From: an uncultured Pseudomonadota bacterium
Lineage (GTDB): Bacteria > Pseudomonadota > Alphaproteobacteria > JACZXZ01
Direction of reading: 5' to 3'
Length of the DNA: 64,000 nucleotides
NCBI GenBank assembly: GCA_963749075.1
Contig: CAVVLJ010000017.1
Location: 576,001-640,000 of the forward strand
Shown here: positions 30,933-55,070 of the stretch, one piece after another
How positions within the stretch are numbered: position 1 is the first letter of the stretch
Layout: each line of letters starts with the position of its first letter
Notes under the pieces: model-generated
Told to the model about the DNA's origin: nothing
What the model saw: the letters and a program-made list of their open reading frames with translations, nothing else
Databases searched by the model: none
Program-made: the position numbers and the translations under genes

Positions 30933-33167
30933 CTAGAAACGATAGCGCATGCCGACGAAGACCACGTTGACGAAGTAGGACGGGTTGGCGTCGCCCGGCA
31001 AAAGCCCGGTCGAGTAGGCCGTCGCCGAAGTAAGGGCGAAATCCTGGTAATCCAGGCGCTCCAAGGTATCGCCGATGAAGAGCATGACGTTGGACTGCAG
31101 ATTGTACTCGACGCGCAGGGTCAGGCTGTTGAGCAGCGATACCACGTCGGGGAGCGGCGCCGTCGCCAGGCTGGAGTTGGCCGGCGCCCCGAGTGCGAGC
31201 GTGCCGCCGTCCGAGATCACGAAACCGGTGTCGCCGTAGGAGAGATTGTAGCCGAGCTTGACCTTGAGGCGGTCGGGAATTGCCTTCCATTCGGCATCGA
31301 GGCCGACGCTGTGGACCTGATCGGTCGTCTTGCCGTTCCATTGGCCGTTGCACCCGGCCGTCGTGGTGAAGCCGTTGGCGTTGCAGGTCGTGCTCGTCCA
31401 ATAGACGGAGTTCTGATCGTAGTAGACCCTCTGATAGGTATAGTAGCCGTGGAACGTGAGGTCCTCCGTCGGCTGCCAGGTGATATCCGGCCCGAGCGAG
31501 ATGCTCTCGTTGTTCCTCAGCCCCAGCGTCGATTGCGAGTAATCGTCGTTGTCGTACTTGATCATGAACGTGCCGTTGAGGGTGTGGTTCGGCGAGAAGT
31601 CGAGCGTGCCCTTGACCTCGTCGCGGGTGCGCGACGCCTCGTAGAACTTGAAGAGGCCGCCGAAGTCCAGGTTGCCGGCGTTGTCCAGGAAGTCCCACGG
31701 CGCGTTCTGGTTGTAATTGTGGGCATCGCGCATGGCGTGGGAATATCCGAGGCTGCCGTTGACGTCGTCCAGGATATGGCTGCGTACCTTGCCGCCGAAG
31801 GTGTTCTCCGTCACGTCCTTGGTATCCGCAAAGGTGCGCAAGGTGCTGTCGTAGTCATAGTCCAGCGTGAGCTTCGTCTCATCCAGCACCCGGTAGCCGC
31901 CCTCGAGCGACGCCTTCTGGTGGATATAGCTCGACGGCGTGTTGGAGTATCCGGTGGGCCCCGTGTTGGCGAGGGCATCGCCGACGGCGGTGACGTAATG
32001 GCTGCGCGGGGTCATGTTGTCGCGGTCGTCGATCGTGTAGCTCGCCCGCACGTTCACTCGATCCAGCGGCTCCGAGGTGATTGCCGCATTGCCGAAGATC
32101 GTGTTGACCAGCCCGTCGAGGCTCGAGCGCGGTATCGAAATCCCGGTCGCGTTCACATTGCCGGTCGAGGGCGCGAAGGCGTCGTTCTGCATCTGCAGCC
32201 CGTAGGCGAAATTGACGTTGAGCCGCGTCCTCGGCGTGACATTGAGACCGACCTGGGCCTTGACCTGATGGGCCGAGTTGCTCGGCGGCGTGCTCCAATA
32301 GGCGCTCAAGCCGGCGACGCCGGGTCCGAAAGTCGCGGCCGACAAGGCAAAGGGATTCTGACCCTGGAAATAGGTCGTGTTGTCGTTGAAGGCGGAGAAC
32401 GTGTAGCCGAGCTGGGCCTGCAGGCGGGCGCCGTTATATTGCGCCATGGCCTCGTAGCGGCCGGTGTCGTAGTTGATCGGCTCGGGGAAATAGAGAACCG
32501 CACCGGTGGTCACGGCGCTGTAGGACGGCGAGACCGGGGTGCCGCCGAAGGTCAGGCCGGTCTCCTTGATGCCCTCCTTGTGCTCCTGGCGAATGTTCGT
32601 GCTGAAGACCCAATCGCCCACCTGATAGTGGGCATTGCCGCCGAAGATGTTGCGCTGGGTCTTCGCCTCGAGGACGTTCAGCTTGCCCGTGAGCGACGTG
32701 GCAGATCCCACGCTGCCCTTGGCTATGCCCGCCGCAAGCGAGCCGTTTGGATTGTAGACGCTGTGGAAGGTGTTGGAGCCATAATAGGGAATGCCGTCGT
32801 AGTAGAACTTCAGGCCCCATGTGCCCTGCTGGCCGTAGGCGGCGCTGACGGAGCGGGACGTGAGTCCCAGATTGGCGGCCTCGATGTCCCAATAGTGCGT
32901 CCCGCCGGAGTCCCAGGGGTCGTGGCCGCGATAGGTGAAGTCGCCGATCGCGAAACCCGGATCGACCAGCCCGGTGAAGCGGCCGAAGAGGAAGGACTTG
33001 CCGCTGACGTAGCCGGCGCCGACGGTGACCTCATTGGTGCCGCTGGGCTCCGCATTCGCATCGGGAGCGCTTGTCCCAGCGTTGGTGCTTTGAGCCTGCT
33101 GCGCGCGGACTGCAAGCGGCACGAGACAGCTTGCCGCCAATGCCGCGACGATCAATGTGCGCTTCAT
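30933..33167 (-). CDS. mtrB: MtrB/PioB-family outer-membrane beta-barrel
   Basis: 744 aa with signal peptide, FGRFTGL, PEPINYDT, FQGQNPF, PPSNSAHQ, beta-strand-rich sequence and C-terminal MRYRF. Immediately downstream of the decaheme gene. Confidence 0.9.
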   Translation of the reverse strand: MKRTLIVAALAASCLVPLAVRAQQAQSTNAGTSAPDANAEPSGTNEVTVGAGYVSGKSFLFGRFTGLVDPGFAIGDFTYRGHDPWDSGGTHYWDIEAANLGLTSRSVSAAYGQQGTWGLKFYYDGIPYYGSNTFHSVYNPNGSLAAGIAKGSVGSATSLTGKLNVLEAKTQRNIFGGNAHYQVGDWVFSTNIRQEHKEGIKETGLTFGGTPVSPSYSAVTTGAVLYFPEPINYDTGRYEAMAQYNGARLQAQLGYTFSAFNDNTTYFQGQNPFALSAATFGPGVAGLSAYWSTPPSNSAHQVKAQVGLNVTPRTRLNVNFAYGLQMQNDAFAPSTGNVNATGISIPRSSLDGLVNTIFGNAAITSEPLDRVNVRASYTIDDRDNMTPRSHYVTAVGDALANTGPTGYSNTPSSYIHQKASLEGGYRVLDETKLTLDYDYDSTLRTFADTKDVTENTFGGKVRSHILDDVNGSLGYSHAMRDAHNYNQNAPWDFLDNAGNLDFGGLFKFYEASRTRDEVKGTLDFSPNHTLNGTFMIKYDNDDYSQSTLGLRNNESISLGPDITWQPTEDLTFHGYYTYQRVYYDQNSVYWTSTTCNANGFTTTAGCNGQWNGKTTDQVHSVGLDAEWKAIPDRLKVKLGYNLSYGDTGFVISDGGTLALGAPANSSLATAPLPDVVSLLNSLTLRVEYNLQSNVMLFIGDTLERLDYQDFALTSATAYSTGLLPGDANPSYFVNVVFVGMRYRF

Positions 33168-33221
33168 GGTCGCCCCCCATACGCGACTCGCAGTTACGCC
33201 CCAAACTCCCCCGTCAAGCGC

Positions 33222-34193
33222 TCACCGTAAGAAAGCGGCTCCCGCCGGATTGTTCGAACCGTGGATCTGGGAGTGGCAATTGATGCAGCCGTGCGCCATC
33301 AGCTGGAACTTCCCGATGATGGCCCCAGCGAACGTGCCCCCAACCGTGTTCGCGCCGCTATAGGGCTCGCCCGGGTGGAACGTGGTGTCGTGGCAATTCT
33401 GGCAGAGATACGGCGGACGCTCCTTCAGCAGGCGGGCCTGGGTGGAGCCGTGCGGCGTGTGGCAATTGGTGCAGTCCTCCGCCACCGGCGGGTGCTCCCA
33501 GAGAAGCGGACCGCGCTTCTCCGCGTGGCAGGTGTAGCAAGTCTCGTTGATGGTGTACTCCTTGAGGGCCTTCGGACCCGGAGAGCCGTGCGGATTGTGG
33601 CAGTCCGAGCACACCACTTTGCCCTCGCGGATCGGGTGGTGCGAGTACTCGAAGCTCTGCGCACGCTGCTCGGCGTGGCAGGTGAAGCACACCTGCGGCT
33701 GCGTCGCCTTGACCAGCACGGGATCCTTCGCCGCATGCGCGGTGTGGCAGTTGACGCAGGCGACCCCGCTGCTCTCCATCAGGCTGCCCTTCCAGTTCAT
33801 GCGCAGGCCCGACTCGTGACAGCTCAGGCAGACGCCGTTGCGCGCCTCGACCGGCGATTTCTTGGCGCCTCGGAAGACGATCGCCGGCAACACCGTCGTC
33901 GGCGACGCCACATGCGCGGCGCTCGGTCCGTGACAGGTCTCGCAGCCCTGCTGGGCGAACGGCGTGCGCGAATCGCCCGTCACCGCCATCGGCGTCTGGA
34001 ATATGAGGTTAACGGGAGCCTGGTCGTGGCAGCCGAGGCACGTCTTCGTGCCCCCTTCGGCATAGGCTCCGGCCGCTGCTTGCGCCGCCTGCGCTTGCGC
34101 CACCTGCTGTGGCTCGGTCGCCTGCGCCGTCAGCGTCCACCACGCGGCGCCCAGTGCGCACAGAACTCCGACCGTCAGCCTCGCGTTCGCCAT
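33222..34193 (-). CDS. mtrA: Decaheme c-type cytochrome (MtrA/MtoA/PioA/DmsE family)
   Basis: Ten CxxCH motifs, CYTCHAEKRGP.LWEHPPV.EDC.NCH.PHGS, and C-terminal CHSQIHGSN.PAG. Confidence 0.95.
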   Translation of the reverse strand: MANARLTVGVLCALGAAWWTLTAQATEPQQVAQAQAAQAAAGAYAEGGTKTCLGCHDQAPVNLIFQTPMAVTGDSRTPFAQQGCETCHGPSAAHVASPTTVLPAIVFRGAKKSPVEARNGVCLSCHESGLRMNWKGSLMESSGVACVNCHTAHAAKDPVLVKATQPQVCFTCHAEQRAQSFEYSHHPIREGKVVCSDCHNPHGSPGPKALKEYTINETCYTCHAEKRGPLLWEHPPVAEDCTNCHTPHGSTQARLLKERPPYLCQNCHDTTFHPGEPYSGANTVGGTFAGAIIGKFQLMAHGCINCHSQIHGSNNPAGAAFLR

Positions 34194-34687
34194 GGAGCTC
34201 CCCCTCCGCTTCGTGGAGCGCTGATTTGTTGCAGCCGCGCTCCGCTAGCGTCGCGTCTAACTCATGTTGCCGCTCTTCGCATCTTTGCCGTTCTTAGAAG
34301 CCTCTCCTCGTTCCGCGAGCGTCTAACCATTGACCGCGACGACATCGGCGCCGCCCCAAGCGAGGGGCAGCGCGTTCGCGGGAGACAGGCGATGGAAGAG
34401 AACCGCCGTGCGGCCGGCATGCAGCGCCTGGCGCGATCGCCCTGCATCGCGTGCGGCGTGCGCCAGCTTGCGGCTAAGCTGCACTGACACGGCGCCCTTG
34501 GCGAAGCCCCCTAGGGGTTCACCCGGCGCAGCCGCCCCTCTGCACATCGACGCCCCCCATGAGCCGGCCACCCTCAGTCTTAACCCGTCCCCTCAACGCC
34601 AGCCTTCATTCATCTGGACCATTCCGCTCGTCCTTGTGAATGAACGCCTTTTTCAGCCACTGGTACTCTCCGAGGGTTCGCTTGCTT

Positions 34688-34725
34688 TTTGTAGTGCCAG
34701 GATCATATTTTCAATTAATACCAGA
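34688..34725 (-). promoter_or_regulatory. Candidate MocR-type operator, copy 1
   Basis: Plus strand TTTGTAGTGCCAGG-N16-ATACCAGA, with arms and spacing identical to 50530-50567. Confidence 0.6.
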
Positions 34726-34838
34726 CCTATCTTCGTTGTAGACGCTCTCCGCGGCCCCTCGGTTCTCGCCGCAGCGGATGCCGCTCTCGACCTCGACGCG
34801 GCGAGACCATTTCCTACGGTCGATCGACATCTCGGTCT

Positions 34839-34852
34839 CTGATCTGGATCAA
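34839..34852. promoter_or_regulatory. FNR/FnrL/FixK-type box
   Basis: CTGAT-CTGG-ATCAA, one mismatch to TTGAT-N4-ATCAA, in the region between mtrA and the heptaheme gene. Confidence 0.6.
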
Positions 34853-35127
34853 TGCCGCGAGCCGGAGCTGCGCGAGCGGCCATCCCCGCGCTCCCCGGAC
34901 GACCCTGGCGCTCGACGGCCAGATCGGCCGAGTCGCATAGAAAAATCAGAATGATAACGGCTTCGACGGGGCCTGCGACGGGAGCGACGGCCGCCGCACT
35001 CCGGCCGCGCGATGCGGCCGGTTGCCCTCGCAATTCAGCCCGGCGAGGTCCAATTCCGGTCTTGTCTGCAGCCGCGATGGGCGTACTCTCCCGACGATAA
35101 GGGCTGGGTTACTCGGCCATCTGGGGA

Positions 35128-36940
35128 ATGTCGGATCAAACGGGGAGATCCAGTCCGATGCGACGTGCGAGACTTGCCGTGTGGCTCACGGCAGCCGTCT
35201 TTGGCGGCATGATGTGTTGTCCCGCAACGCCGAGCGCCTGGTCGGCGGAGAGCGCCGCGGCCGGCTCTCATTCCGCCGACCCCGCGGCCGCATCTCCGGA
35301 CCTCAACGACAACGCGACCTGCCTGGCGTGCCATGGCAACCCGGACTTCATCGTGCCGCGGGCCGACGGAAGCGTGCGCTCGCTCTACATCGACAAGAAC
35401 CATTTTGCTGCCAGCGTGCACGGCAAGCTGCTGGTGTGCGTCAATTGCCACACCAAGATCACCGAAATCCCCCACAGGGACGTGTCGAAGACCCTGCTCG
35501 CGTGGCGCCAGAGCATTCCTCCCATATGCGGCACCTGCCACGCCGACCAGCTCAGCCAGTACATGACGTTGGTGCACGCCAAGGAGATCATGAAGGACGG
35601 CAATCCCAAGGCAGCCGTCTGCTCGGATTGCCACGGCGCGCACAACATCGCGAACCCCACACCCGAGCATGTCAGGTTCACCATCATAGAGAACTGCGGC
35701 AACTGCCACCAAGCGCAACTGAAGAGCTACCTCCAGACCTACCACGGCCAGGTCACCATCCTGGGCTACGGGTACACGGCCAAGTGTTTCGACTGCCACG
35801 GCAATCATGCCATCGTGCCGGTCGGCAGCCCGGCATCCCCGGTCTATCCGGCGAACCGGCTCAAGACCTGCCGGAAATGCCACACGCATGCGACGGCCGG
35901 CTTCGAGACGTTCGAGCCCCACGCCACGACCAACAACCTCTCGCGCTATCCCTATACCTGGCTCGCATCGAAATTCATGTTCGCGCTCCTCGGCGGCACG
36001 TTCGCGTTTTTCTGGACGCATTCGGCGCTGTGGTACTACCGCGAGGTGCGGGACCACCTGGCGATGAAGCATCGGCCGCACGTCAAGACGGCCGAGCTGC
36101 TGCAGGACAAGCCCGTCTACTACCAGCGCTGGAGCGCCATGTGGCGCATCGCCCACCTTTCCTTCGCGATCTGCATGATCGCGCTGATCCTCACCGGCAT
36201 GACCCTGTTCTATGCCGACAGCTTCTGGGCGCCGGCGGTCCAGAGGGCGTTCGGCGGCCCGCGCATCACCGGCACGGTCCACCGCATCTTCGCGGTCGTG
36301 TTCGTGTCGATCTTCGTCGCCCACCTCGGCTACGTGGTGGTGCGCGTCGGCAGGCAGTTGCGCACGTTCGACTGGTTCGGGCCGTACTCGATGGTCCCCA
36401 GCCTGAAGGACCTCGAGGACGCCATCGGGATGTTCAGGTGGTTCTTCGGCCTCGGCCCGCAGCCCCTGTTCGACAAGTGGACCTACTGGCAGAAGTTCGA
36501 CTACTGGGCGCCGTTCTGGGGCGTCACCATCATCGGCGTGAGCGGCGCCATGATGTGGTTCAACACCTTGACGGCATCCTACCTGCCCGGGTGGGTGTTC
36601 AACGTCGCCATGATCTTCCACGGCGAGGAGGCCTTCCTGGCCGCCGCGTTCCTCTTCACGGTGCATTTCTTCAACAACCACTGGAGGCCGGAGAACTTCC
36701 CGCTCGACACCATGATGTTCACCGGCGTCATGCCGCTGGAGAAATTCAAGCGGGAGCATATCATCGAGTACAACCAACTCGTCGCATCGGGCCGGCTCGC
36801 GGACTACATCGTCCACGCGCCGTCGCGGCCCATGACGGTCGGCTCCAAGATTTCTGGGCTTCACCCTGATGGCGGCAGGCCTGATCCTCCTGGTCCTGAT
36901 CATGAACGGCTTCGCGCACAACCTGATCACAGGCGAATGA
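35128..36940 (+). CDS. Heptaheme cytochrome c fused to a membrane cytochrome b domain (CbcL-like); +1 frameshift near 36852
   Basis: Seven CxxCH, then TM helices with His residues (WRIAH, GTVHR, IFHGEEAFLA, FTVHFF) and KWTYWQKFDYWA. The last TM helix (ILGFTLMAAGLILLVLIM...TGA 36938) is in the shifted frame. Confidence 0.88.
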
Positions 36941-37140
36941 TCATGGGCCGCAGGCTTCCGGCGGCCAGGAGAAGAGACTCGCTTGGCCCCGTTGCGGAGC
37001 AACCGATCGCGCGCCGCTGACATCGCCGCCGCAGTGCAGCTCCATTATCGCCTGCGCCGCATTGATCCAAGGCGAAGTTCAGGGCTAAGCTCCCGGCGCG
37101 CGCAGGGTCTCGGGCGGAGCGGTGGCAGCCGGAGAACGGC

Positions 37141-38772
37141 ATGAATCGGCAAAGCCTCAAGTTCAAGGTCGGTCTCTATCTCACCGCGGCACTTTCCCTG
37201 GCGGTGGTTCTGTTCACCGTGGTGGTCGCCTGGAATCAGCGGAACGAGCTGCTCGACACGGTGGCCGGCTACGTCATCCAGCTTTCCGAGGTCATTACCA
37301 GAAGCACGCGTTTCGCAATGCTTCAGAATCAGCCCGCCTACGTGGATACCATCATCCGCGACGTAGCCCAGCAGGAAGGCATCGACAGGATCAGGATCTT
37401 CAGCGCGGACGGCAGGATCACGCATTCGACCTACCCTCCCGAGATCGGCCAGATCGTGGACCGCAAGGCCGAAGGCTGCTCGCTGTGCCACCAGACCGAG
37501 AAGCCGCTCGAGGAAGTTCCCATGGGCAAGCGGACATGGACCTTCACGGCCCCCGGAGGAGAGCGTCTTTTGGGCAGCATGCAGGTGATCCGCAATGCGC
37601 CCTCCTGCTACAACGCCGCCTGTCATCAGCACGCCAAGGACACCCCCGTGCTCGGCGTCCTCGATATCCGCTATTCGCTGAACGACATGGATCGGAGGAT
37701 CCGCGGGAACGTGCTTACGATCATCGCATTTTCCCTGGGATTCGTGCTCGTCGCCTCGCTCACGGTCGGCCTTTTCGCCCACCCTCTGGTCTATGTGCCG
37801 CTGCGCGATTTGGAAGCCGGGGCGAGGCGCATCGCCGCCGGCAATCTGGAGGAGCCCATTCCGGTGCGGAGCGGCGACGAGTTCGGCGAGCTTGCGCGCT
37901 CCTTCAATGCCATGACGGCAGCGCTGCGGAATTCCCGCTCGGAGCTGCGCGAGTGGGCGGCGACGCTCGAGCAGAAAGTCGAGAGAAGAACCGAGCAGCT
38001 CCGCATTGCCCAGGCCGAAGCCACGCGGGGAGAAAAGCTGGCTTCGGTCGGACTGCTCGCCTCCGGCATCGCCCACGAGCTGAACAATCCGTTGACCGGC
38101 GTCCTCACCTTCTCGCAGCTGCTGCGGGAAAAGATGGCGGACGGGAGCCAGGACGCGGAGGACATGGACCTCGTGATCCGGGAAACCAGGAGGTGCGCCA
38201 GCATCATCCGAAGGCTGCTCGATTTCGCGCGAGAGAAGCCGCCGGAGAAGAAATTCGCCGACCTCAACCAGATCATCGAAGACACCGCCCGTCTCGTCGA
38301 ACGGCCCGCCCATTTGCGCGATATCGCCGTCACCCTGGACCTCGACCGAACCCTGCCGCAGGCCTGGATCGACCCGGACCAGATCAAGCAGGTCGTCATG
38401 AACCTGCTCGTCAACGCCCAGCATGCGATCGACGGAGAGGGCGGCATCGTTGTGCGCACGCGGCAAGTGCCGCACCCGAGAGCCTCGCAACCTGGCGCCA
38501 CCGCCGCGCCGATGGTGGAATTTTCGGTCAGCGATACCGGATGCGGAATACCCAATGAAAACTTCGGGCGGATTTTCGATCCCTTCTTCACCACCAAGAT
38601 CGGAATGGGCACGGGACTGGGATTGTCCGTCAGCCATGGCATCGTCGAGGCTCATGGCGGTACGATCGAAGTCGAAAGCGAAGTGGGGGAGGGCTCCACA
38701 TTCCGGGTCCGCCTCCCTCTCGTCCGGTCGCCCGAACTCGTGGACAGCGGCAGTCGAGGGAACATTTCGTGA
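37141..38772 (+). CDS. Sensor histidine kinase with periplasmic heme-c motif and HAMP domain
   Basis: Two TM helices flank CSLCH and CYNAACH. HAMP (DEFGELARSFN.M), IAHELNNPL, NLLVNA, DTGCGI, FFTTK, GTGLGL. Confidence 0.93.
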   Translation: MNRQSLKFKVGLYLTAALSLAVVLFTVVVAWNQRNELLDTVAGYVIQLSEVITRSTRFAMLQNQPAYVDTIIRDVAQQEGIDRIRIFSADGRITHSTYPPEIGQIVDRKAEGCSLCHQTEKPLEEVPMGKRTWTFTAPGGERLLGSMQVIRNAPSCYNAACHQHAKDTPVLGVLDIRYSLNDMDRRIRGNVLTIIAFSLGFVLVASLTVGLFAHPLVYVPLRDLEAGARRIAAGNLEEPIPVRSGDEFGELARSFNAMTAALRNSRSELREWAATLEQKVERRTEQLRIAQAEATRGEKLASVGLLASGIAHELNNPLTGVLTFSQLLREKMADGSQDAEDMDLVIRETRRCASIIRRLLDFAREKPPEKKFADLNQIIEDTARLVERPAHLRDIAVTLDLDRTLPQAWIDPDQIKQVVMNLLVNAQHAIDGEGGIVVRTRQVPHPRASQPGATAAPMVEFSVSDTGCGIPNENFGRIFDPFFTTKIGMGTGLGLSVSHGIVEAHGGTIEVESEVGEGSTFRVRLPLVRSPELVDSGSRGNIS

Positions 38773-40193: not shown

Positions 40194-40257
40194 GAGGCAG
40201 GCCGGCCTCCCTCGCGCCAGTCCCCGGCGCGGCGTCGCGCGCACGGTGCCGCAGCCC

Positions 40258-40830
40258 TCAGGCCGGCCGGAAATCCCCGTTCTCGCCCCGGCTCCCGGCT
40301 GAGCCATGCAGATCGGCAATCCGCGAAGCGATCTGATCCACTGCCTGCCATGAGGTGAATTCGACGCAGCTCCGCGGGTCGGTCGGTCCTCCCGTCATCT
40401 TCATGATGAAGCGGATGATCTGGCGATCGAGCCAGCGGTAATGCGGGTAGTCGAGCCGCCCGGCGACGGCGGCCGCCAAAACCGGCTTCAGCCCATGTCG
40501 GGCCAGCAATTTCCGAAGATATTGATGGCCCGCGGCGGCGTCCTTCCCCGCCTTCCTGGCGGCCAGATTCACCGAGACGAAGACAAGCGGAGCCCGCGCG
40601 AGCAGCTCTCCGTACGTCGCAAAGAAGCGCTCCGCTTCCGGCAGATGCCGGCCATATCGCACGGCCGCAACCACGACGACCAAGGGGGCCGCGGCGAGAT
40701 CCGCCGCCGCCGGAAACGCGCCCGCCAGGTCATGCGGCGGTGCGCAGATCCCGTGGTCGGCAAGCCGGTCCGCTATATGCGATGCGATCCGCCGCGATTG
40801 ACCGTCACGCGTGGCGTAGAACAAAAGCAT
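40258..40830 (-). CDS. hemG: Quinone-dependent protoporphyrinogen IX dehydrogenase (flavodoxin fold)
   Basis: YATRDGQS..IA, AVRYG, FVSVNLAARK, AGRLDYP.Y.W.DR..IRFIMKMTGGPTD...VEFT.W. Start may be upstream at 40893. Confidence 0.88.
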   Translation of the reverse strand: MLLFYATRDGQSRRIASHIADRLADHGICAPPHDLAGAFPAAADLAAAPLVVVVAAVRYGRHLPEAERFFATYGELLARAPLVFVSVNLAARKAGKDAAAGHQYLRKLLARHGLKPVLAAAVAGRLDYPHYRWLDRQIIRFIMKMTGGPTDPRSCVEFTSWQAVDQIASRIADLHGSAGSRGENGDFRPA

Positions 40831-40946
40831 CTTCTGACCCGGGTTCGCAGCGCAGCGCTGCACGGGCCTCTTCGACGATTGCCGCCGCGACATGCCCGCG
40901 CGGCGAGGAGATCGACGCGGTCATTCCGCTCGCCGCGGCCGCGCCC

Positions 40947-41591: not shown

Positions 41592-41596
41592 CTTGC

Positions 41597-46306: not shown

Positions 46307-46611
46307 ACGTCGTCCGACAAGCCTCGATGCGCCCGCGATCGACGTAAGCCGTTGACACGAGAATCGCATCCGAGATATGAGGGAGAGCAACTCGATGCGG
46401 CACATTGTGCGATTGGGGCGAGCGAAACGTGGTTCCCCCCGCCGGGCGACGCAGGCACCAGAAGCGCCGGCGCCGCGCGCAATTGGCCGCTCTCATCGGC
46501 CGCTTTGCCTCAGCGCAATTGGTGACACAGGGTACTTGAGTCCGATGAGGTACCCGTGAACCCTTCCGTTTCCCGGCCGGCGGGACAGATGCTTCAGCGC
46601 CAAGCGAAATC

Positions 46612-47922: not shown

Positions 47923-48063
47923 GCGGGCCGCGGGGATCGTAATCCGGGGCCGGTGCCGCGTCCGGCGCATTGGCCGTAGCGAGCAACACCGAGGCCGCAG
48001 CGCCTAAGCCGCCGCATGAGCCCTGCCCGTGCGCTCCGGCTCGCAAGAGCGAAGGAACCGACC

Positions 48064-48852
48064 ATGAGTGATGTGCGACTGCACCGGCTTTATCATCATT
48101 TTTCGGAGCTGCCATATAGCCAGCGCGTCGTGTACACGGCGACGCTCCTCATATTCGGGCTGGGCTACCTCTTCGCCTTGACCTACGTCTATCACACCTA
48201 CGCCGGGCGGGCCGGAGGGAACCCCAAGATACTGTCGTACGAGGACCTCGTCGTCGCCTACAGCGGCAGCGGAAAGGGCTCGCGACTCGAGACGGCCCTG
48301 CGCGGACCGATGTCGACCATGCTGCCGCGCGACGAGCTCGACTCCATCATCGCCTGGGTGCGCCAAGGTGCCACGAGGGCAAAATACGAGACAGACATCA
48401 AGCCGGTGCTCGACAAGCGGTGCATGGCCTGCCACGACGGCAGCAATCCGCACCTTCCGAACCTGAACGGATACGAGAACCTGACGAAAATGACCGAGCA
48501 GGACACCGGCGCCAACGTCTTCACGCTGGTGCGCGTGTCGCATATCCACCTGTTCGGCGTCACCTTCATCTTCTACATCATGGGCATGATCTACAGCCAC
48601 GCCTACGTGCGGCCCGTGTGGTTCAAGTGCGCCGTCGCCGCAATGCCGTTCCTCTGCGTCTCGATGGATGTCAGCTCTTGGTATTTCACCAAGCTCTATC
48701 ATCCGTTCGCCCTGCTCGTGATGCTCGCCGGTGCCCTGATGGGCGCCTCCTTCGCGCTCATGTGGGTCACGTCGATGTATCAGCTGTGGTTCTCCAAGAC
48801 GCCTTCGCCGGTCGCCCTGAGGGAGAGCGGCGATATTCCCAACGTTGACTGA
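48064..48852 (+). CDS. Uncharacterised integral membrane monoheme c protein
   Basis: N-terminal TM, soluble loop with RCMACHDG, then VRVSHIHLFG and three further TM helices. Confidence 0.8.
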   Translation: MSDVRLHRLYHHFSELPYSQRVVYTATLLIFGLGYLFALTYVYHTYAGRAGGNPKILSYEDLVVAYSGSGKGSRLETALRGPMSTMLPRDELDSIIAWVRQGATRAKYETDIKPVLDKRCMACHDGSNPHLPNLNGYENLTKMTEQDTGANVFTLVRVSHIHLFGVTFIFYIMGMIYSHAYVRPVWFKCAVAAMPFLCVSMDVSSWYFTKLYHPFALLVMLAGALMGASFALMWVTSMYQLWFSKTPSPVALRESGDIPNVD

Positions 48853-49021
48853 GTGCAACCGGGGAAATCCTCGGATCGCTACGTCCGAGGAAGCGTCGCC
48901 CTAGCGATAGGGCGTTCCGGCGCGCCGCACTCCGGCCGCAAATCCGATACGGCCCCCGCGCCGCTTACCCGGAGCGATGCCGGGCTTGCCCGCTTGAGCA
49001 GCCGCACCCGCGCCGGGGCCG

Positions 49022-49405
49022 CTACTTCGCCTTCTCCTTGAGAAAGGCGATGACGTCCTGGATGTCTTGATCGCTCTTGAGAGCGCCGGCCAACATCTTG
49101 GTGCCGGGAACGTCGGCCTTCGGGTCCTTGAGGAACTTCGCCAGGCTCGCCTCGTCCCAGGTGATGCCGGACTTCATCATGGCATCCGAGTATTTGAAGC
49201 CTCCGCCCGTGCCCGCCTTGCGTCCCATGACGCCGTTGAGGCTCGGGCCCATCCCGTTCTTGCCTTGATCAAGGCTGTGGCAAGCCTTGCATTGGCCGGT
49301 GAAGACCTTCTCGCCGTTCGCCACATCGCCGGCCGCAAGCGCCTCGCCGGCCGCTACGGAAAACGCCAGCGCGGTCGTGAGCGCAACGAGGTTAAGCTTG
49401 AGCAT
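49022..49405 (-). CDS. Cytochrome c2-like monoheme protein (copy 2)
   Basis: Signal peptide, GDVANGEKVF..QCKACH, GPSLNGV.GRKAG, YSDAM, VPGTKM. Confidence 0.92.
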   Translation of the reverse strand: MLKLNLVALTTALAFSVAAGEALAAGDVANGEKVFTGQCKACHSLDQGKNGMGPSLNGVMGRKAGTGGGFKYSDAMMKSGITWDEASLAKFLKDPKADVPGTKMLAGALKSDQDIQDVIAFLKEKAK

Positions 49406-49488
49406 TTCTCTCACCCTTTCAAGATCGCGGCGCTCCCGGTCGCCATCGGTCGCGCGGCAATTGAGCACCCGCAGCTGCGTTGGGGAAG

Positions 49489-49873
49489 CTACTTCGCTTT
49501 TTCCTTGAGGAAGGCGATGACGTTCCTGAATGTCCTGATCGCTCGAGAGCGAGCCGGCCAGCATCTTGTTGCCGGGAACTGCGGCCTTCGGGTCCTTGAG
49601 GAACTTCGCCAAGTTCGCCTCGTCCCAGCTGATGCCGGATTTCATCATCGCATCCGAGTACTTGAAGCCCGCGACCGAGCCCGCCTTGCTTCCGACGATG
49701 CCGTTAAGGCTCGAGCCCATCCCGTTCTTACCCTGATCGAGGCTGTGGCAAGCCTTGCAATGGCCGGCGTAGACCTTCTCGCCGTTCGCCACATCGCCGG
49801 CGGCGAACGCTTGGCCGATGGCGAGGGAAAGCGCAAGCGCGGCCGTGAGTGCTACGAGGTTCGACTTCAGCAT
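49489..49873 (-). CDS. Cytochrome c2-like monoheme protein (copy 1); +1 frameshift near 49523
   Basis: Near-identical to copy 2 (HCKACH, VPGNKM). It is 385 nt versus 384 nt, with GACGTTC where copy 2 has GACGTC. Confidence 0.88.
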
Positions 49874-49971
49874 TGTTCGTCCCCCTTTGAGATCGAGTTG
49901 CCTTCGGTTTCCATCGGCCGGGCGACAGTCCCGGCCGATGTTGCGGCGGCGATCAAGGCGCCAGGCAGGCA

Positions 49972-50386
49972 TCAATTGTCCTTGGCGCCCTGAAATATCC
50001 AAGTCCAGATGGCATTGCGATCGCAGCTCGACAGCTGCTTCTTGCCGTGCGGCATGCGGAGTTCGGGCGAGGCGCGCCAGTTGAGCAGCCACATCAGATT
50101 GCTGGCATCCGGATCGTGGGGCACGACCATTGGCCCGAACTTGGTGCCCTTCAACAGTCCCGCGTAAGTCGTCAAGTCCAGCCCGCTCTTGTCGTATCCC
50201 TCGCCGCCCGGTTGGTGGCAGGAGATGCAGCGTCCCTTGAAGATCGGGAAGATATCCTCGGAGAAGCTGACCGTATCTTGCGCCGCGCACGCCTCGCGTG
50301 ACCGCATCGTCAGATTCTGCGGCCGCCGCGGCTAGAGCGAGAGCGGCGGCGAAGATCGCGGCGTGGTATTTTCTCATGACCGTCAT
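49972..50386 (-). CDS. Small monoheme cytochrome c (planctomycete cytochrome C-like domain); +1 frameshift near 50315
   Basis: Signal peptide in one frame. VSFSEDIFPIF..RCISCH...GLDL.TY.GL.KG...VVP.DP..S.L...RMP...WI.QGA in the next. Confidence 0.8.
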
Positions 50387-50529
50387 CTTTCATCAGCCCC
50401 GGCGCCTCAACGATCCATCGCCGCCGAATGCTCCCCGTGCGGCTCGCGGCGCATTCCCCGAATGGCGACTACGCCTTTGTAATTGAAGCGCTTATCGGCA
50501 ATCGGCAGTTTCCATGGGTCGGCGCGGTC

Positions 50530-50567
50530 TTTGTAGTGCCAGGGCCGTAGAATCGGGTCATACCAGA
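50530..50567 (-). promoter_or_regulatory. Candidate MocR-type operator, copy 2
   Basis: TTTGTAGTGCCAGG-N16-ATACCAGA upstream of the three-cytochrome operon. Confidence 0.6.
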
Positions 50568-50603
50568 AGACTTTCTCGTTGCCGCGCCGCGAGCGGCGCG
50601 ATC

Positions 50604-52094
50604 CTATGCCGCTCTCAGCGGCTTCCTGTTGCCCGTCCCCTCCGTCCGTGGTGCTATGGCCTCCGCCAGATCGGCGACTCCTTTGCGGATGTCCGCCTCC
50701 GACAACGCCCCATATCCCAAGAACAACGTGTGATTGGCATTTTCGCACCACGCGCGCTCCTCCGCGACGAGATCCGGCAAGGTGCAGACGCCGACCTCGC
50801 TCGCGCGCGCCAATCGCCGCACCTCGGGTGCCGGCGGGAAGCCGGGCGGCAGGAACCACGCCACGTGCGCCCCGGCCTCGGTACCGGCGAGCCGGACCTC
50901 GCCGAAATGTTGGCGCAGCGCAGCCCATAGGCCATCGCGCCGAGCCAGATGGATCTTGCGGACGCGGCGCAGGTGGCGGGCAAAGCCGCCGCTCTCGATG
51001 AATTTGGCCAGGCTGACTTGCTCGAGCCACGCCGGGCCATTCCCGACGAGCGCCTTGAGCGAAAGCATCGGCGCCACCAGCTCGGGCGGCACGACCATGT
51101 AGGCCAGGCGAAGCCCGGGGCCGAGCGTGCTCGTAAAATCGCCGACGAAGACTACCGTCCCAGCGACATCGAGGGCTTGCAGCGGGGCCGGCGGCACGCC
51201 GCGGTACCAAACGCCGCTGCCGCATTCGTCCTCCAGGATATGAGAACCGGCCTGCCGGGCCCATGCGATGAGGCGCTTGCGCCGTGCCGGCGGCAACGTG
51301 CCCCCCACCGGATATTGGTGCATGGGCGCGACATAGGTGAGCGTCACCGGACCGTGCGGCAGGCGATCCACGTCCAAGCCATGCTCGTCCACCGGCACCG
51401 GCACCAGCTCGGCGCCCTGGCTCGCCAGCGCTCTCGCCACCTCGTCCGGGCAGGTACATTCGACGACGACGCGGCTGCCGCGCGGGGCGAGATGGCGGGC
51501 CAGGATGTAATAGGCTTGATGGCGATTCGAGACGATCACGATTTGCTCCGGCGGCACGGCTATGCCGTGGCTCACGATCAGCCAGTCGGCGATGGCCCGG
51601 CGCAGGCATTCGAGGCCGGGCGGCGGATCGAATGCGACCCGCGCGCGGTAGTGCTCGATGGAGGGCAAAATGAGCTTCCGCCAGACCTTGAGCGGAAAGA
51701 GCTGGCCATCGAAGTGACGCGGGTCGAAGTCGATGGCGGGCGGAGCCGGTACCACCATTTGCGCTGCGCCGCCGCCTCGCTCGCTCCGCGATGCCGTCTC
51801 GCGTCTTGCCTTGTCCGCGCCGGCGCCCGGGCGCCTCGCGATCGCGTCGGCCGGCGGCTCGCTGCTGACGAAGGTGCCGACGCCAGGCCGCGTCTGCAGA
51901 TAGCCTTCGGCGATCAGCTGCTCGTGAGCCAGGAGTGCGGTCGTCCGCGACACGCCGAGCTGCTCGGCCAATTGGCGCGTCGCCATCATCGGCGCCCCGG
52001 GCTTCAGGCGGCGCTCGGCGATGAGCGCCCGCAGCTGCTCGTAAATCTGCACCTGCAGGGGCCTGGTCGAGCTGCGATCGATCTTGAGCACCAT
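50604..52094 (-). CDS. MocR/GabR-family regulator (GntR wHTH + aminotransferase-like domain)
   Basis: PL..QIY..LR..I....L.PG....TR.LA..LGVSR, L.AEGYL...G.GTFV, HQYP.G, PGLRLAY. Confidence 0.92.
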   Translation of the reverse strand: MVLKIDRSSTRPLQVQIYEQLRALIAERRLKPGAPMMATRQLAEQLGVSRTTALLAHEQLIAEGYLQTRPGVGTFVSSEPPADAIARRPGAGADKARRETASRSERGGGAAQMVVPAPPAIDFDPRHFDGQLFPLKVWRKLILPSIEHYRARVAFDPPPGLECLRRAIADWLIVSHGIAVPPEQIVIVSNRHQAYYILARHLAPRGSRVVVECTCPDEVARALASQGAELVPVPVDEHGLDVDRLPHGPVTLTYVAPMHQYPVGGTLPPARRKRLIAWARQAGSHILEDECGSGVWYRGVPPAPLQALDVAGTVVFVGDFTSTLGPGLRLAYMVVPPELVAPMLSLKALVGNGPAWLEQVSLAKFIESGGFARHLRRVRKIHLARRDGLWAALRQHFGEVRLAGTEAGAHVAWFLPPGFPPAPEVRRLARASEVGVCTLPDLVAEERAWCENANHTLFLGYGALSEADIRKGVADLAEAIAPRTEGTGNRKPLRAA

Positions 52095-52170
52095 GGACGG
52101 GGCTCCTGACGACGGTCACTTGGTCTCCGAATGTCGGGATCGTCTTTAGACCCGTCGAGGCAATCGAGCA

Positions 52171-52184
52171 TTGATGTGCATCAA
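52171..52184. promoter_or_regulatory. FNR/FnrL/FixK-type box
   Basis: Perfect TTGAT-GTGC-ATCAA upstream of the MocR-family gene. Confidence 0.8.
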
Positions 52185-52239
52185 CACCGCACAGCAAGCG
52201 GCGCTCGCGCTTCGCATCAAGCAAAGAGCAGAGCGTCAG

Positions 52240-52983
52240 TCAGCGGGTCACGACCAGCCGCTGGTAGAGTCCGCCGAAGAAGGACGTGTTGCGCAAAGCT
52301 TGGCCGGCCCAGGGATGCGGCAGGCAAGCCGCGAGGTCGCCGCGCCACAAGTCGGGCGCGAAGGGCTCGAGCACCGCCAGCACGGGAAGCCAGAGATAGC
52401 GCAACGGGTGCCAACGGCTCGGCCGGGCATAATCGACGACGAGGATGGTGCCGCCGGGCCTGACCACGCGGAACACCTCGCTGAGCGTGCGCCGGCGCAC
52501 CTCGGCGGGCTGCTCGTGCAGCAGAAAGAAGACCATGGCGCGGTCGTAACTGGCGTCGGGCAGACCGAGCTCGGCCGAATCCCTCGCCAGCAAGCGCACC
52601 GGAGCGTCCGCCGGCAGCTTCCGCCTGAGGTTCTCGAGCTGGATCGGCAGAATATCGACGATATCGAGCGCCCCGCCGCCGGCGGCGACCCGTTGGCTGA
52701 GCCGGCTCGTGAGATCGCCATAGACGCAGGCCACCTGCAACGTGCGGCCGGATAGCGAATCGCCCAATTCGGAGAGCGCCGCGTCGCGCAGGCGGCGATA
52801 ATTCCCCCACAGGATCAAATTGACCAGCCATTGGCGCTCGAAGAGGCGAACCGCCTTGGGATGGATATAGGCCCACCAATAATGGGCCTTGAGATAGTGC
52901 GGCACTCCGTCGCCGGCGCCCGTCGCCGGGAGCGTCGCCGAATCAGCAGGAGGAGCGATGCCGGAATGTGGGGTCATGCCCAA
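52240..52983 (-). CDS. rquA: Rhodoquinone biosynthesis protein RquA
   Basis: VP.YL...YWWAYIHP.AV..FERQWLVNLILWGNY..L, the altered SAM motif LQVACVYG, FFLLHEQP, LEPFA. Confidence 0.9.
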   Translation of the reverse strand: MGMTPHSGIAPPADSATLPATGAGDGVPHYLKAHYWWAYIHPKAVRLFERQWLVNLILWGNYRRLRDAALSELGDSLSGRTLQVACVYGDLTSRLSQRVAAGGGALDIVDILPIQLENLRRKLPADAPVRLLARDSAELGLPDASYDRAMVFFLLHEQPAEVRRRTLSEVFRVVRPGGTILVVDYARPSRWHPLRYLWLPVLAVLEPFAPDLWRGDLAACLPHPWAGQALRNTSFFGGLYQRLVVTR

Positions 52984-53175
52984 TTCATCTCCCTCTCAAA
53001 GCGGCCGCTCTGGCAGCGGCGGAAACTGCGATCGGCCGTCATTCCACCCGCCTCGCGCTGCATCTTCTGGACGACCGGGACATCGCCCGGTGCGTTCCTC
53101 GCTCCCTCGGAGGCCCGCTGAGCGGCGGACGAACCCGCCAAACATTAGCTTACGAATTTCAGCGGGCGTTCTGCT

Positions 53176-53288
53176 TTGATTTAGATCAGCCGCAGCTTAC
53201 CGAAGAAGCGCCTCGGACGCCGGGCTGTTTTGAGGCGCGGTTCCTGCTTGGCGGGTCCGTCGGCATCCAATAGAGTGATCTAGATCAA
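53176..53288. promoter_or_regulatory. Two FNR-type boxes in the rquA/hemA divergent region
   Basis: TTGAT-TTAG-ATCAG (53176-53189) and GTGAT-CTAG-ATCAA (53275-53288), one mismatch each. Confidence 0.7.
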
Positions 53289-53421
53289 GCGGCACGGCGT
53301 CCGCGAAGGCTAGCATATCTCTCGTGGTGCGGCGATATGTTGCGTTTTCATGTGCAGCGGGCGGCCCCAAGCGCCGAAGATGCGCGGGTCCGGCTCCTGT
53401 TCCAGGATCGGGCGGGTGAAT

Positions 53422-54636
53422 ATGGACTATGAGCGCAGATTCCGCGACGTCCTCGGCTCGCTGCAGTCCGAAGGGCGTTACCGCGTCTTCGCCGATCTCG
53501 AGCGCCGGGCCGGCGACTTTCCGCACGCCCTGTGCCACGGAGCCGACGGCCGGACCCGCGAAATCGTGGTCTGGTGCAGCAACGACTATCTCGGCATGGG
53601 CCAGCACCCGCTCGTGATCGCCGCCATGAAGGAGGCCCTCGAGACCTGCGGTGCCGGCGCCGGGGGCACGCGCAACATCTCCGGCACCAACCATTACCAC
53701 GTGCTGCTCGAGCGCGAGCTCGCCGAGCTGCACGGCAAGGAGGCGGCCCTTCTCTTCACCTCGGGCTATATCTCCAACGAGGCGACGCTCTCGAGCCTGA
53801 GCCGGCTGCTCCCGGGCTGCATCGTCTTCTCGGACGAGCGCAACCACGCTTCGATGATCGAGGGTATCCGCCACGGCGGCTCCGAGAAGCGCATCTTCCG
53901 GCACAACGATCCCGCCGACCTGGAGCGCCTGCTTGCCGAGGCCGATGCGGCGGCGCCGAAGCTCGTCGCCTTCGAAAGCGTCTATTCGATGGACGGCGAC
54001 ATCGCCCCCATCGCCGAGCTCTGCGCTGCCGCCGAGCGCCACGGCGCCCTCGTCTATCTCGACGAGGTGCATGCGGTCGGGCTCTACGGCGAGCGCGGCG
54101 GCGGCATCTCGGAGCGCCAGCGCGTGGCGCAGCGGATTCCGGTGATCGAGGGCACGCTGGCCAAGGCCTTCGGCGTGATGGGCGGCTACATCGCCGGCTC
54201 GGCAGCACTCGTCGACGCGGTGCGCAGTCACGCCGCGGGCTTCATCTTTACGACCGCCCTGCCGCCGCACGTGGCTGCCGGGGCGCTCGCGAGCGTGCGC
54301 CACCTCAAGGGAAGCGGGCGCGAGCGCGCGCAGCACCAGGAGCGCGCCGCCGCGCTGAAGCGCCGGCTCGCCGAGGCCCGCCTCCCGCTCATGCCGACGG
54401 AGAGCCACATCGTGCCGCTGCTCGTGGGCGACGCGCGGCTCTGCAAATCGGCTTGCGACGAGCTCCTCGAGCGCCACGGCATCTACGTGCAGCCGATCAA
54501 TTACCCGACCGTGCCGCGGGGCACCGAGCGGCTGCGCCTGACGCCAAACCCGCTGCACACGGATGCGCACATGGACGCGCTCGTTGCGGCACTGGCCGAG
54601 GTGTGGAGGCGCTTCGGCTTGCAGCGCGCGGCCTAG
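53422..54636 (+). CDS. hemA: 5-aminolevulinate synthase
   Basis: [53 protein letters not shown]. Confidence 0.96.
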
Positions 54637-54640
54637 CTCC

Positions 54641-55070
54641 GTGCTGAGCCAGAGGGTCGAACGCGCGCTGCCACGCTGCGAGCCCGAGCAGCTCTTCGAT
54701 CTCGCCGCCGACGTTCGAGCGCTATCCCGAGTTCCTGCGCTGGTGGATCGCGGCGCGCATCCGCAAGCGCGAGGCCGATGTCTACTACACCGACCAGATC
54801 CTCGGCCTCGGCCCCATCCGCCTAAGGTTCGGCTCCAAGACGGTCCTGCGCCGGCCGCAGCGCATCGAGGTGAGCTCGGACGAGGGACCGTTCCGGCGCT
54901 TCGGCCTCATCTGGACCTTCGAGCCGCAGCCGCGCGCCGGCTGCCGGGTGAGCCTCGCCGCCGAGCTCGAGCTGCGCTCCGCTCTCCTGCAACGCGTCGT
55001 CGACCGCGTCCTGCCGGTTGCCGTAGCCGATATCATCGCTGCCTTCGAAGCGCGCGCCCGCGGACTCTGA
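54641..55070 (+). CDS. Coq10/RatA (START-fold) quinone-binding protein; +1 frameshift near 54714
   Basis: EQLFDLAADV then, in the shifted frame, ERYPEFL.WW...GPFR.F...W.F...AFEARA..L. GTG start 4 nt after the hemA stop. Confidence 0.8.

Follow-up and report, generated by a model that had tools for sequence, protein, structure and literature searches.

We describe a region of an alphaproteobacterial genome in which rquA, the gene for a rhodoquinone biosynthesis enzyme, lies 19 kb from mtrB, the gene for the porin of an outer-membrane porin-cytochrome conduit, and we find that rquA and such conduit genes are close neighbours in other Alpha- and Betaproteobacteria far more often than would be expected by chance. 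The region is part of a 64-kb stretch of DNA (‘the window’, G000:C17:576001-640000, in whose own numbering positions are given) from a soil alphaproteobacterium, whose genome comprises 5.49 Mb in 23 contigs and is estimated to be 96% complete and 5.15% contaminated. Open reading frames (ORFs) were chosen by their third-position G+C and then scanned against Pfam and NCBIfam, and all identities given here are read from sequence. The region is composite, in that an island conserved in the genus (30.9-50.3 kb), which encodes the conduit, is followed by a species-specific segment (50.4-55.1 kb) that contains rquA. In the explanation that we consider best overall, and in which our confidence is about even, an extracellular electron transfer (EET) island has been combined with an rquA segment, such that rhodoquinol would feed an outward conduit at low oxygen.

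An original prediction for this region had proposed a self-contained low-oxygen module that makes its own low-potential quinone and connects it to the cell exterior. This interpretation is supported in part: the conduit and the quinone modules, rquA, the low-oxygen boxes and the linkage between rquA and the conduit all stand, whereas the self-contained nature of the module does not.

Linkage of rquA to conduit genes in other genomes

A scan of 185,579 species genomes yielded more than 571 relatives of RquA, and we examined the best 80 loci, which belong to 79 genomes. MtrB/PioB homologues (E <= 1e-10) are encoded in 48 of these 79 genomes (29/50 plus 19/29), with 31 above the cut-off. In 11 of the 48 genomes with both genes, rquA and mtrB lie within 20 kb of each other, at distances of 2.7 to 16.6 kb, while the chance of such proximity is about 0.8% per genome. 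Linkage of rquA to mtrAB, whose absence from other genomes would have counted against the original prediction, is thus found outside our window. Proteins of the types present in the island are also encoded in the 10-kb flanks of 11 of the best 80 rquA loci.

The two genes are 2.7 kb apart in G089, 3.3 kb in G470, 5.0 kb in G105, 9.0 kb in G082 and 11.0 kb in G086. They are separated by 5.5 kb in G464 (with the order mtrBA, a cbcL-type gene, rquA), by 7.9 kb in G483 (rquA, frdBA, a cbcL-type gene for a 9-haem protein, mtrBA), and by 12.0 kb in G084, in which mtrBA and a cbcL-type gene (67% identical) are followed by a RatA/Coq10-like gene and then by rquA. Full MtrCAB sets accompany rquA in G482 (11.6 kb) and G479 (16.6 kb), where mtrAB is found together with OmcA/MtrC decahemes (TIGR03507, 321-511 bits, cut-off 209), i.e. 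with conduits of the metal-reducing type. The 13.6-kb distance in G107 involves a partial MtrB at a contig end that scores below the cut-off, a point against our interpretation. The 11 linked loci are spread over at least six well-supported clades of an RquA tree, and come from Alpha- and Betaproteobacteria. A count of linkage changes on this tree (12 changes for 12 linked rows) was set aside, and only the clade spread is used, because ‘unlinked’ includes genomes in which the distance is not established.

Co-occurrence of the two genes was further assessed in two even samples that were not picked via RquA, consisting of 401 genomes of the class and 201 genomes of the family of G086. In the class sample, RquA (E <= 1e-40) is encoded in five of the nine genomes with MtrB (two of these five, G194 and G345, being below the curated RquA cut-off), versus 27 of the 392 genomes without MtrB. 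In the G086 family, MtrB is present in 6/12 genomes with RquA versus 13/189 genomes without it. When the index genomes are left out, Fisher tests give p = 0.0017 for the class and p = 0.0011 for the family, although these tests, like our binomial tests, take related genomes as independent and so overstate the significance.

Parts of the island other than the conduit are also found next to rquA. Homologues of its second tetrahaem cytochrome (65-67% identical) and of its membrane monoheme protein with four transmembrane (TM) helices (61-71% identical) adjoin rquA at loci L022 and L078, and at the latter the tetrahaem gene, the monoheme gene and rquA are consecutive on one strand. These two neighbours, seen in Bradyrhizobium-labelled and betaproteobacterial metagenome-assembled genomes (MAGs), are conserved as much as RquA itself.

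The survey also gave some incidental observations. Several of the genomes G092, G097, G100, G103, G079, G095, G070, G468 and G458, including Rhodoplanes isolates, carry a tandem pair of rquA genes about 240 nt apart. One of them, Rhodovulum sp. PH10 (G458), has two RquA copies along with MtrB (440 bits). Dechloromonas sp. ARDL1 (G462) likewise encodes MtrB, and of its three rquA genes two are plasmid-borne and one is chromosomal. Close RquA homologues at L056, L083 and L087 are on contigs labelled as Candidatus Binatus, Patescibacteria group and Enterobacteriaceae, unexpected hosts that may be due to binning or labelling errors. Many of the clusters of rquA neighbours proved to be shadow ORFs on the opposite strand; those for FrdB, CBS-BON, Hsp20 and Lon looked real, and only FrdB was used.

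Composite origin of the region

A comparison with other species of the genus locates the boundary between the two parts. Window positions 30924-50260 are syntenic with G003:C42:60519-82132 (81-90% DNA identity), and at this locus the two genomes share nothing beyond 50,260 or before 30,924. Three of five other species of the genus (G002, G003 and G004) encode MtrB, and they do so without RquA, MenD or MqnA; RquA was found in none of the five congeners and in none of 10 family members searched. With a 7.5-kb query (50300-57800), neither the MocR-like regulator gene nor rquA has a DNA match in any of the five congeners. This query does match hemA, 95 nt of the Coq10-like gene, the tRNA and a methyltransferase gene beyond the tRNA in congeners, and HigBA in G002 only; the left neighbour of the tRNA-Ser gene is a different one in G003.

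The nearest RquA (85%), on MAG contig L015, is encoded in an frdA-frdB-rquA cluster, and the Coq10-like gene beside it encodes a protein 79% identical to that in the window. Given this pairing, the end of the synteny and the lack of rquA in congeners, this species most likely gained rquA together with its Coq10-like partner, at the border of an island that is older. The hemA gene of the segment is one of three paralogues in the genome, the others being at C20:668.5k (77%) and C17:371k (69%), and it is the C20 copy that is syntenic among congeners, the copy in the region being extra. A module that is self-contained is not supported by these observations. G+C is 0.62-0.67 at 30-54 kb, versus 0.69-0.72 in the flanks, and both flanks contain unrelated housekeeping genes. 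We rejected a single insertion of the whole 30.9-56.6 kb stretch at the tRNA-Ser gene, since the flanks in G003 correspond to several different contigs of G000, which indicates rearrangement rather than one clean insertion.

Within the syntenic block, the cbcL-type gene is inverted and duplicated in G003. The two G003 copies of this 7-haem/cytochrome b gene (C42:64896-66446 and 75547-77304) are 55% and 49% identical to that in the window; one copy has the opposite orientation to that in G000, and the other is flanked by the cheY-like gene and the first tetrahaem gene. The G003 DNA to the left of mtrB (C42:58892-60291; L008 8893-10292) matches the CcmE locus of G000 (C21:391605-393005), such that the island adjoins cytochrome c maturation genes in G003 and not in G000.

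Shared low-oxygen boxes

The original prediction that genes of the region share regulatory sites is borne out for boxes of the FNR/FixK type (TTGAT-N4-ATCAA, with at most one mismatch). The window contains five such boxes, versus 0.41 expected (none of 100 shuffles reaches five), and all five are inside the region, at promoters of both the island and the rquA and hemA genes. Boxes are present in G003 at both equivalent island positions (64110 and 73049, the latter perfect). More generally, 33 of the 78 rquA loci that have sufficient upstream sequence carry a box at most 450 bp upstream, versus about 4 expected from a background of 156 boxes in 1.26 Mb. Judging by these motifs, a low-oxygen regulon of the FNR/FixK type seems to include both the island and rquA/hemA. 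We do not propose a sigma-54 regulon, since consensus sites in the window number 6 versus 10 expected, and only one of them (44547-44562) is well placed.

RquA and the quinones of the host

RquA in the window retains all 52 positions that are invariant or nearly so across 81 family sequences, and its gene is single-copy in the genome. We think it probable that RquA makes rhodoquinone in this organism, as it does in E. coli (PMC9814641, PMC11707229). The ubi gene that we searched for, UbiA, was found (365.4 bits, cut-off 275.45), which implies ubiquinone as a substrate for RquA, while the genome has no match to MenD above its cut-off and none to MqnA. Rhodoquinone would thus be the only low-potential quinone of the host. 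The genome contains CcmE. No match to PF01136 (UbiU/V, U32 peptidase) was found in the genome, from which we draw no conclusion; an O2-independent ubiquinone pathway is reported for 73 of 84 RquA genomes (PMC11707229).

As for possible users of rhodoquinone, a dedicated fumarate reductase (frd) was found neither next to rquA nor elsewhere in the genome, which has a single SdhB/FrdB-like gene (34% match). There is also no PufM match (TIGR01115) in the genome, and a RuBisCO-like match is only partial (51 bits), so there is no sign of photo- or lithoautotrophy.

Among 20 MtrB-bearing genomes tested for MenD and MqnA, MenD was found in none and MqnA in one. Like the three congeners mentioned above, G176 and G304 have MtrB without RquA, MenD or MqnA, which implies that the island needs no low-potential quinone; for conduits of this type, ubiquinone alone is clearly enough. 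As the island works without rquA in sister species, any tie between the two is facultative, not obligatory.

Proposed mechanism and alternative explanations

The gene content of the region suggests the following mechanism. At low oxygen, an FNR/FixK regulator would turn on both the island and the rquA segment, and RquA would turn part of the ubiquinone pool into rhodoquinone. The CbcL/MtoC-type modules, each of which comprises multiheme cytochrome c and dihaem cytochrome b parts, would oxidise rhodoquinol, and the electrons would pass through periplasmic cytochromes of the c4, c2 and PSCyt1 types to MtrAB, in which the decaheme MtrA would be threaded through the MtrB porin with no MtrC, and from there to external acceptors. 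Rhodoquinone would thereby take the part that menaquinone has in Shewanella and Geobacter. For its control, the island would have a haem-sensing two-component system and a sigma-54 activator of its own, besides FNR-type boxes, and it also carries hemG. We regard it as very likely that the island is an EET module. That rhodoquinone is functionally coupled to the conduit is plausible, and here our confidence stops just short of even. Somewhat more tentatively, rhodoquinone may have a second role in ubiquinone-only members of the Alpha- and Betaproteobacteria, as a low-potential quinol from which CbcL/MtoC-type dehydrogenases feed MtrAB or MtrCAB. It would there stand in for menaquinone, with rquA being repeatedly recruited into EET islands, sometimes along with a dedicated Coq10-like quinone-binding protein.

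Several observations weigh against this coupling. In three of the 48 genomes with both genes, rquA and mtrB are on the same contig but farther apart (51 kb, 815 kb and 2.7 Mb), and in 34 they are on different contigs, which leaves their distance open. If only RquA proteins above the curated cut-off are counted, the class sample gives 2/8 versus 24/392, which is not significant (p = 0.089). A further point is that frdB is found within 22 of the best 80 rquA loci, including six of the 11 with island-type genes, and rhodoquinone may mainly serve fumarate reduction. That classical role holds, and for the low-potential pool on which it draws the conduit may simply be an additional exit. The presence of only ubiquinone in the congeners, along with the missing MtrC, keeps both mere co-location and inward electron uptake live. 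In the case of co-location, rquA and its Coq10-like partner would have entered by horizontal transfer into a flexible tRNA-Ser stretch that happens to abut the island, rhodoquinone would serve fumarate reduction or other anaerobic reductases, the conduit would run on ubiquinone as in the congeners, and the recurrent linkage would reflect anaerobic-respiration genes of one FNR regulon gathering in the same islands. This set of assumptions is in our view unlikely, yet much of the comparative evidence agrees with it: rquA is absent from congeners that have MtrB, the synteny block stops before it, its nearest relative is in an frdAB-rquA cluster, toxin-antitoxin genes and a tRNA-Ser gene mark the border, G+C is lower in the region than in its flanks, and rquA was already known to occur within 15 genes of varied respiratory, cytochrome and haem genes (PMC5953543). 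What argues against accident is that proximity in 11 of 48 genomes, across at least six RquA clades and with varied gene orders, is far above the 0.8% expected, that co-occurrence is enriched in both even samples, and that the genome has no dedicated frd that we could find, its one SdhB-like match aside. Succinate dehydrogenase run backwards has reportedly been proposed for fumarate reduction in Rhodospirillum rubrum.

The direction of electron flow is a separate matter. An OmcA/MtrC homologue (TIGR03507) was not found in the genome (96% complete), and conduits without MtrC/OmcA are usually read as serving iron oxidation or electron uptake. Accordingly, the conduit could run inward like MtoAB or PioAB, taking up electrons from Fe(II), reduced humics or minerals, in which case the CbcL/MtoC-type modules would be quinone reductases and the resulting rhodoquinol would drive NAD+ reduction via complex I more easily than ubiquinol. 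The gene set (an MtrAB-type pair, an MtoC-type protein and small periplasmic cytochromes) indeed fits the mto clusters of PMC6295460, a paper that, in its accessible portion, finds no feature to tell quinol-oxidising from quinone-reducing members of this family, and the congeners with ubiquinone only also fit uptake. Nonetheless, we consider inward flow improbable, and we favour outward flow, because the potential of rhodoquinone (-63 mV, PMC11707229) matches that of menaquinone and would presumably make it harder than ubiquinone to reduce with Fe(II), because nothing in the host points to photo- or lithoautotrophy, because two linked loci elsewhere have full MtrCAB sets of the metal-reducing type, and because a Telmatospirillum MAG with MtrAB only has been tied to goethite reduction (PMC6933298). 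Finally, island and rquA segment might come from different organisms and have been wrongly joined during assembly or binning. The estimated contamination of 5.15% leaves some room for this, and contigs C10:1-6293 and C11:1-6709 of G000 share 97.6% and 98.7% identity with G003 (C124 and C42), as opposed to about 75-90% (around 80%) elsewhere, which hints that the bin includes fragments of another, G003-like strain. We compared positions 48800-54700 with short-read contigs from soil-metagenome runs of one study. Although no single short-read contig spans the junction, those of run X1 tile 29 of 30 bins at >=99% identity (only bin 54119-54315 is uncovered), with no joint at the junction, which is not independent evidence since X1 may be the source sample. 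In addition, the contig matches congeners on both sides of the window and extends beyond 1 Mb, and linkage of the same type is found in 11 other assemblies. We thus regard an artefact as very improbable.

Gene content of the region

Every gene named by the original prediction was present at its given place (Table 1), including those of the porin-cytochrome conduit and of the quinone-interacting modules of the inner membrane. Its count of 39 CxxCH motifs was reproduced as well (10+7+9+4+4+1+2+1, plus one in the histidine kinase), a total that requires both the periplasmic motif of the kinase and a motif concealed by a frameshift in the multiheme gene. The prediction had missed the sensor kinase with its haem motif, the sigma-54 response regulator, two further response regulators and the MocR/PdxR-like regulator, as well as apparent frameshifts in the multiheme gene (~42257-42269) and in the Coq10-like gene (~54716).

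Table 1. Features of the region, in window coordinates
Feature	Position	Strand	Evidence and remarks
MtrB/PioB-family outer-membrane beta-barrel porin, 744 aa	30933-33167	-	PF11854 410.8 bits; TIGR03509 407.4 bits (cut-off 240.05)
Periplasmic decaheme of the MtrA/MtoA/DmsE family, 323 aa, 10 CxxCH	33222-34193	-	TIGR03508 303.1 bits (cut-off 192.2)
Divergent intergenic region, 934 bp	34194-35127		No coding-like ORF; contains the next feature
FNR/FixK-type box	34839-34852		1 mismatch; between mtrA and cbcL-type gene
CbcL/MtoC/MtrH-type inner-membrane protein, 7-CxxCH periplasmic domain fused to cytochrome b	35128-37020	+	Ni_hydr_CYTB / FdnI-like
Sensor histidine kinase (HAMP, HisKA, HATPase)	37141-38772	+	Pfam; CxxCH between its two TM helices
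NtrC-type sigma-54-dependent response regulator	38769-40193	+	Sigma54_activat 234.8 bits; Response_reg 111 bits
HemG, quinone-dependent protoporphyrinogen IX dehydrogenase	40258-40893	-	NF008316 153.8 bits (cut-off 142)
PhsC / Ni-hydrogenase cytochrome b-like membrane subunit	40947-~41609 (start approximate)	-	PF01292 80.7 bits; NF011582 129.9 bits, below cut-off
Nonaheme c-type cytochrome, C-terminal TM anchor	41597-43055; probable true start ~42908	-	Split into 6-heme and 2-heme ORFs
FNR/FixK-type box	43042-43055		Perfect; upstream of nonaheme gene
Response-regulator receiver fused to duplicated membrane segment, 268 aa	43220-44026	-	Response_reg 97.9 bits; TM segments
Single-domain CheY-like response regulator	44052-44519	-	Response_reg 109.8 bits
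Sigma-54 promoter-like site	44547-44562	-	1 mismatch; 28 nt upstream of cheY-like start
24-nt element	44713-44736	+	Inverted second copy at 46332-46355; flanks first tetrahaem gene; 2 matches vs 0 expected
First periplasmic tetrahaem class-I cytochrome, c4/PdsA-like repeats, 4 CxxCH	45191-46306	+	Pfam; PdsA model 129 bits, below cut-off
Second periplasmic tetrahaem class-I cytochrome	46612-47922	+	Pfam, NCBIfam
Membrane monoheme protein, 4 TM, haem motif in first periplasmic loop	48016-48852	+	TM and motif prediction
Two tandem cytochrome c2/CycA-like monoheme genes	49022-49420, ~49490-49876	-	NCBIfam; direct repeat
PSCyt1-type monoheme cytochrome	49972-50386	-	PF07635 40.8 bits
MocR/PdxR-like GntR-aminotransferase regulator	50604-52094	-	NF052282 348.5 bits (cut-off 320)
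FNR/FixK-type box	52171-52184		Perfect; 77 nt upstream of MocR-like gene
rquA, rhodoquinone biosynthesis enzyme	52240-52983	-	NF038261 equivalog 286.8 bits (cut-off 175), positions 1-218
Two FNR/FixK-type boxes	53176-53189, 53275-53288		rquA-hemA divergent intergenic region
hemA, 5-aminolevulinate synthase (ALAS)	53350-54636, likely start 53419	+	TIGR01821 648.6 bits (cut-off 338.55)
Coq10/RatA-like SRPBCC protein (Polyketide_cyc), one of two paralogues	~54641-55070	+	PF03364 65.1 bits, model positions 15-126
VapBC-like and HigBA-like toxin-antitoxin pairs, then tRNA-Ser(GCU) at 56631-56723	55099-56723		Closes species-specific segment

The porin matches TIGR03509 over its full length (model positions 1-662), and its gene is single-copy in the genome and 55 nt from the decaheme gene on the same strand. 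The second inner-membrane module, 40947-43055(-), consists of the nonaheme gene and the separate PhsC-like cytochrome b gene. In the histidine kinase, the CxxCH motif is at residue 113, between TM helices at ~6 and ~186; the G003 orthologues of this kinase and of the sigma-54 response regulator are 88% and 94% identical, respectively. The hemG gene is the sole hemG-like gene detected by tblastn of the genome, and unless HemY or HemJ is encoded elsewhere, the island may thus carry a general step of haem synthesis. The five periplasmic cytochromes comprise two tetrahaem proteins (c4/PdsA-like), two c2/CycA-like proteins and one of the PSCyt1 type. Neighbours of the 4-TM monoheme protein in the ESM Atlas carry PF27139 Aq_1264_TM (score 0.99).

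Two side observations concern individual genes. The joining of a receiver domain to TM helices, as in the 268-aa response regulator, is an unusual output, and its C-terminal membrane segment is tandemly duplicated (a 164-nt direct repeat, 80% identical, at 43239-43588). Near the tRNA-Ser gene, a 96-nt ‘tRNA-His(atg)’ called by ARAGORN at 55603-55698 falls within the gene for a PIN-domain protein and is probably false.

The frameshifts appear to originate in the assembly. The G003 orthologue of the nonaheme gene is one ORF with 9 CxxCH motifs and a C-terminal anchor, and aligned with it the window has one extra base at ~42257-42269, behind which a CLGCH motif is concealed. In the Coq10-like gene, the PF03364 match is on residues from 54690, and the first ~25 codons are in another frame, with the break near 54716. 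Short-read contigs lack a single base at two positions, 49523 (in two runs) and 50315 (in one). When the former base is dropped, the second c2 gene regains its C-terminus, and when the latter is dropped, PSCyt1 regains its signal peptide. Three of these four indel sites (~42257-42269, 49523 and 54716, and not 50315) share the motif GACGTTC/GAACGTC, which occurs 10 times in the window. Because of this shared motif, and because short-read contigs omit the bases at 49523 and 50315, we take the frameshifts to be systematic assembly insertions and not signs of pseudogenes; for the nonaheme and Coq10-like genes, we infer this from the shared GACGTTC. The error looks like one of systematic basecalling, perhaps at methylated GACGTC, and may fake frameshifts throughout the genome.

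Implications

Models of EET have been built on Shewanella and Geobacter, which use menaquinone, and to our knowledge rhodoquinone is known almost solely as a partner of fumarate reductase. How ubiquinone-only Proteobacteria, which are common in soils, bogs and groundwater, reach low-potential external acceptors is an open issue, to which the recurrent tie between rquA and Mtr genes offers a concrete and testable answer. If rhodoquinol does feed the conduit, rquA and mtrB would be a candidate marker pair for iron- or humic-reducing capacity in metagenomes. The same reading suggests an engineering route, in which one gene makes a low-potential quinone from ubiquinone in electroactive chassis strains.

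Comparison with known systems

Our literature searches, in which most papers were judged by title and by the opening of the abstract, found none that connects rhodoquinone or rquA with the Mtr, Mto, Pio or CbcL systems, in agreement with the original prediction, which knew of no described system that combines rquA with a porin-cytochrome conduit; supplementary tables (of PMC5953543, PMC8805035 and PMC6295460), which lie outside this scope, could hold cases. Stairs et al. (2018) describe rquA, in general terms, as occurring within 15 genes of genes for respiratory complexes, cytochromes, and ubiquinone and haem biosynthesis (PMC5953543). Of two large quinone surveys, in their accessible text, PMC11707229 mentions neither multiheme cytochromes nor Mtr nor ‘extracellular’, and PMC13386864 mentions neither multiheme cytochromes nor Mtr, and uses ‘extracellular’ once, for growth factors. 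PMC10715153 likewise makes no link between rhodoquinone and a conduit. In Albidoferax, hemG was observed to adjoin mtrCAB (PMC8805035). In the fumarate systems of Rhodospirillum rubrum and relatives, the RquA equivalog, the ubiquinone pathway (UbiA) and upstream FNR-type boxes are as in our host, which differs in that no dedicated fumarate reductase was found and in that rquA has as neighbours the cytochrome island and additional copies of hemA and of the Coq10-like gene.

Each of the known electron transfer systems resembles the island in some respects. With MtrCAB-CymA of Shewanella it shares the MtrAB core and the proposed oxidation of a low-potential quinol at the inner membrane with electrons passing outward; however, the island has no OmcA/MtrC, contains a CbcL-type protein instead of a CymA-type quinol dehydrogenase, and belongs to a genome in which MenD and MqnA were not found, where rhodoquinone would stand in. 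CbcL of Geobacter sulfurreducens, which serves low-potential acceptors, likewise combines a multiheme c domain in the periplasm with a dihaem b membrane domain of the HydC/FdnI type, but has nine fused haem motifs, whereas the fused protein of the island has seven and its 9-haem protein is separate from the cytochrome b gene. The acceptors to which CbcL and ImcH direct EET differ in redox potential, and CbcL is 35-36% identical to proteobacterial MtrH/MtoC (PMC6295460); we liken the island protein to them by its domain make-up.

PioABC of Rhodopseudomonas palustris TIE-1, which functions in phototrophic uptake, is also an alphaproteobacterial set of MtrAB homologues without MtrC, and the porin of the island fits the MtrB/PioB model. 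PioA has a long N-terminal extension, which the 323-aa decaheme of the island does not, and our genome is without PufM, with no HiPIP-like gene among the island ORFs scanned. The Telmatospirillum MAG from a goethite-reducing enrichment has alphaproteobacterial MtrA/MtrB pairs without MtrC/OmcA, for which iron-oxide reduction was proposed (PMC6933298); the accessible portion of that paper does not contain the word ‘quinone’, and reports neither CbcL-type modules nor rquA. Finally, the Fe(II)-oxidising MtoAB-MtoC-MtoD systems of Sideroxydans, Gallionella and Dechloromonas resemble the island in their MtrA-type decaheme and MtrB-type porin without MtrC, in the CbcL/MtoC/MtrH-type protein of the cluster and in their small periplasmic cytochromes (PMC6295460). 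The island differs from them in having two inner-membrane modules, one of which has its nonaheme and its cytochrome b as separate proteins, in its own haem-sensor kinase, sigma-54 regulator, hemG, FNR-type boxes and tetrahaem c4-like shuttles, in its alphaproteobacterial host without sign of autotrophy, and in the rquA gene alongside. The island itself is therefore of the already known Mto/Pio/Mtr plus CbcL/MtoC kind, and it is the recurrent tie of rquA to such conduits that is new.

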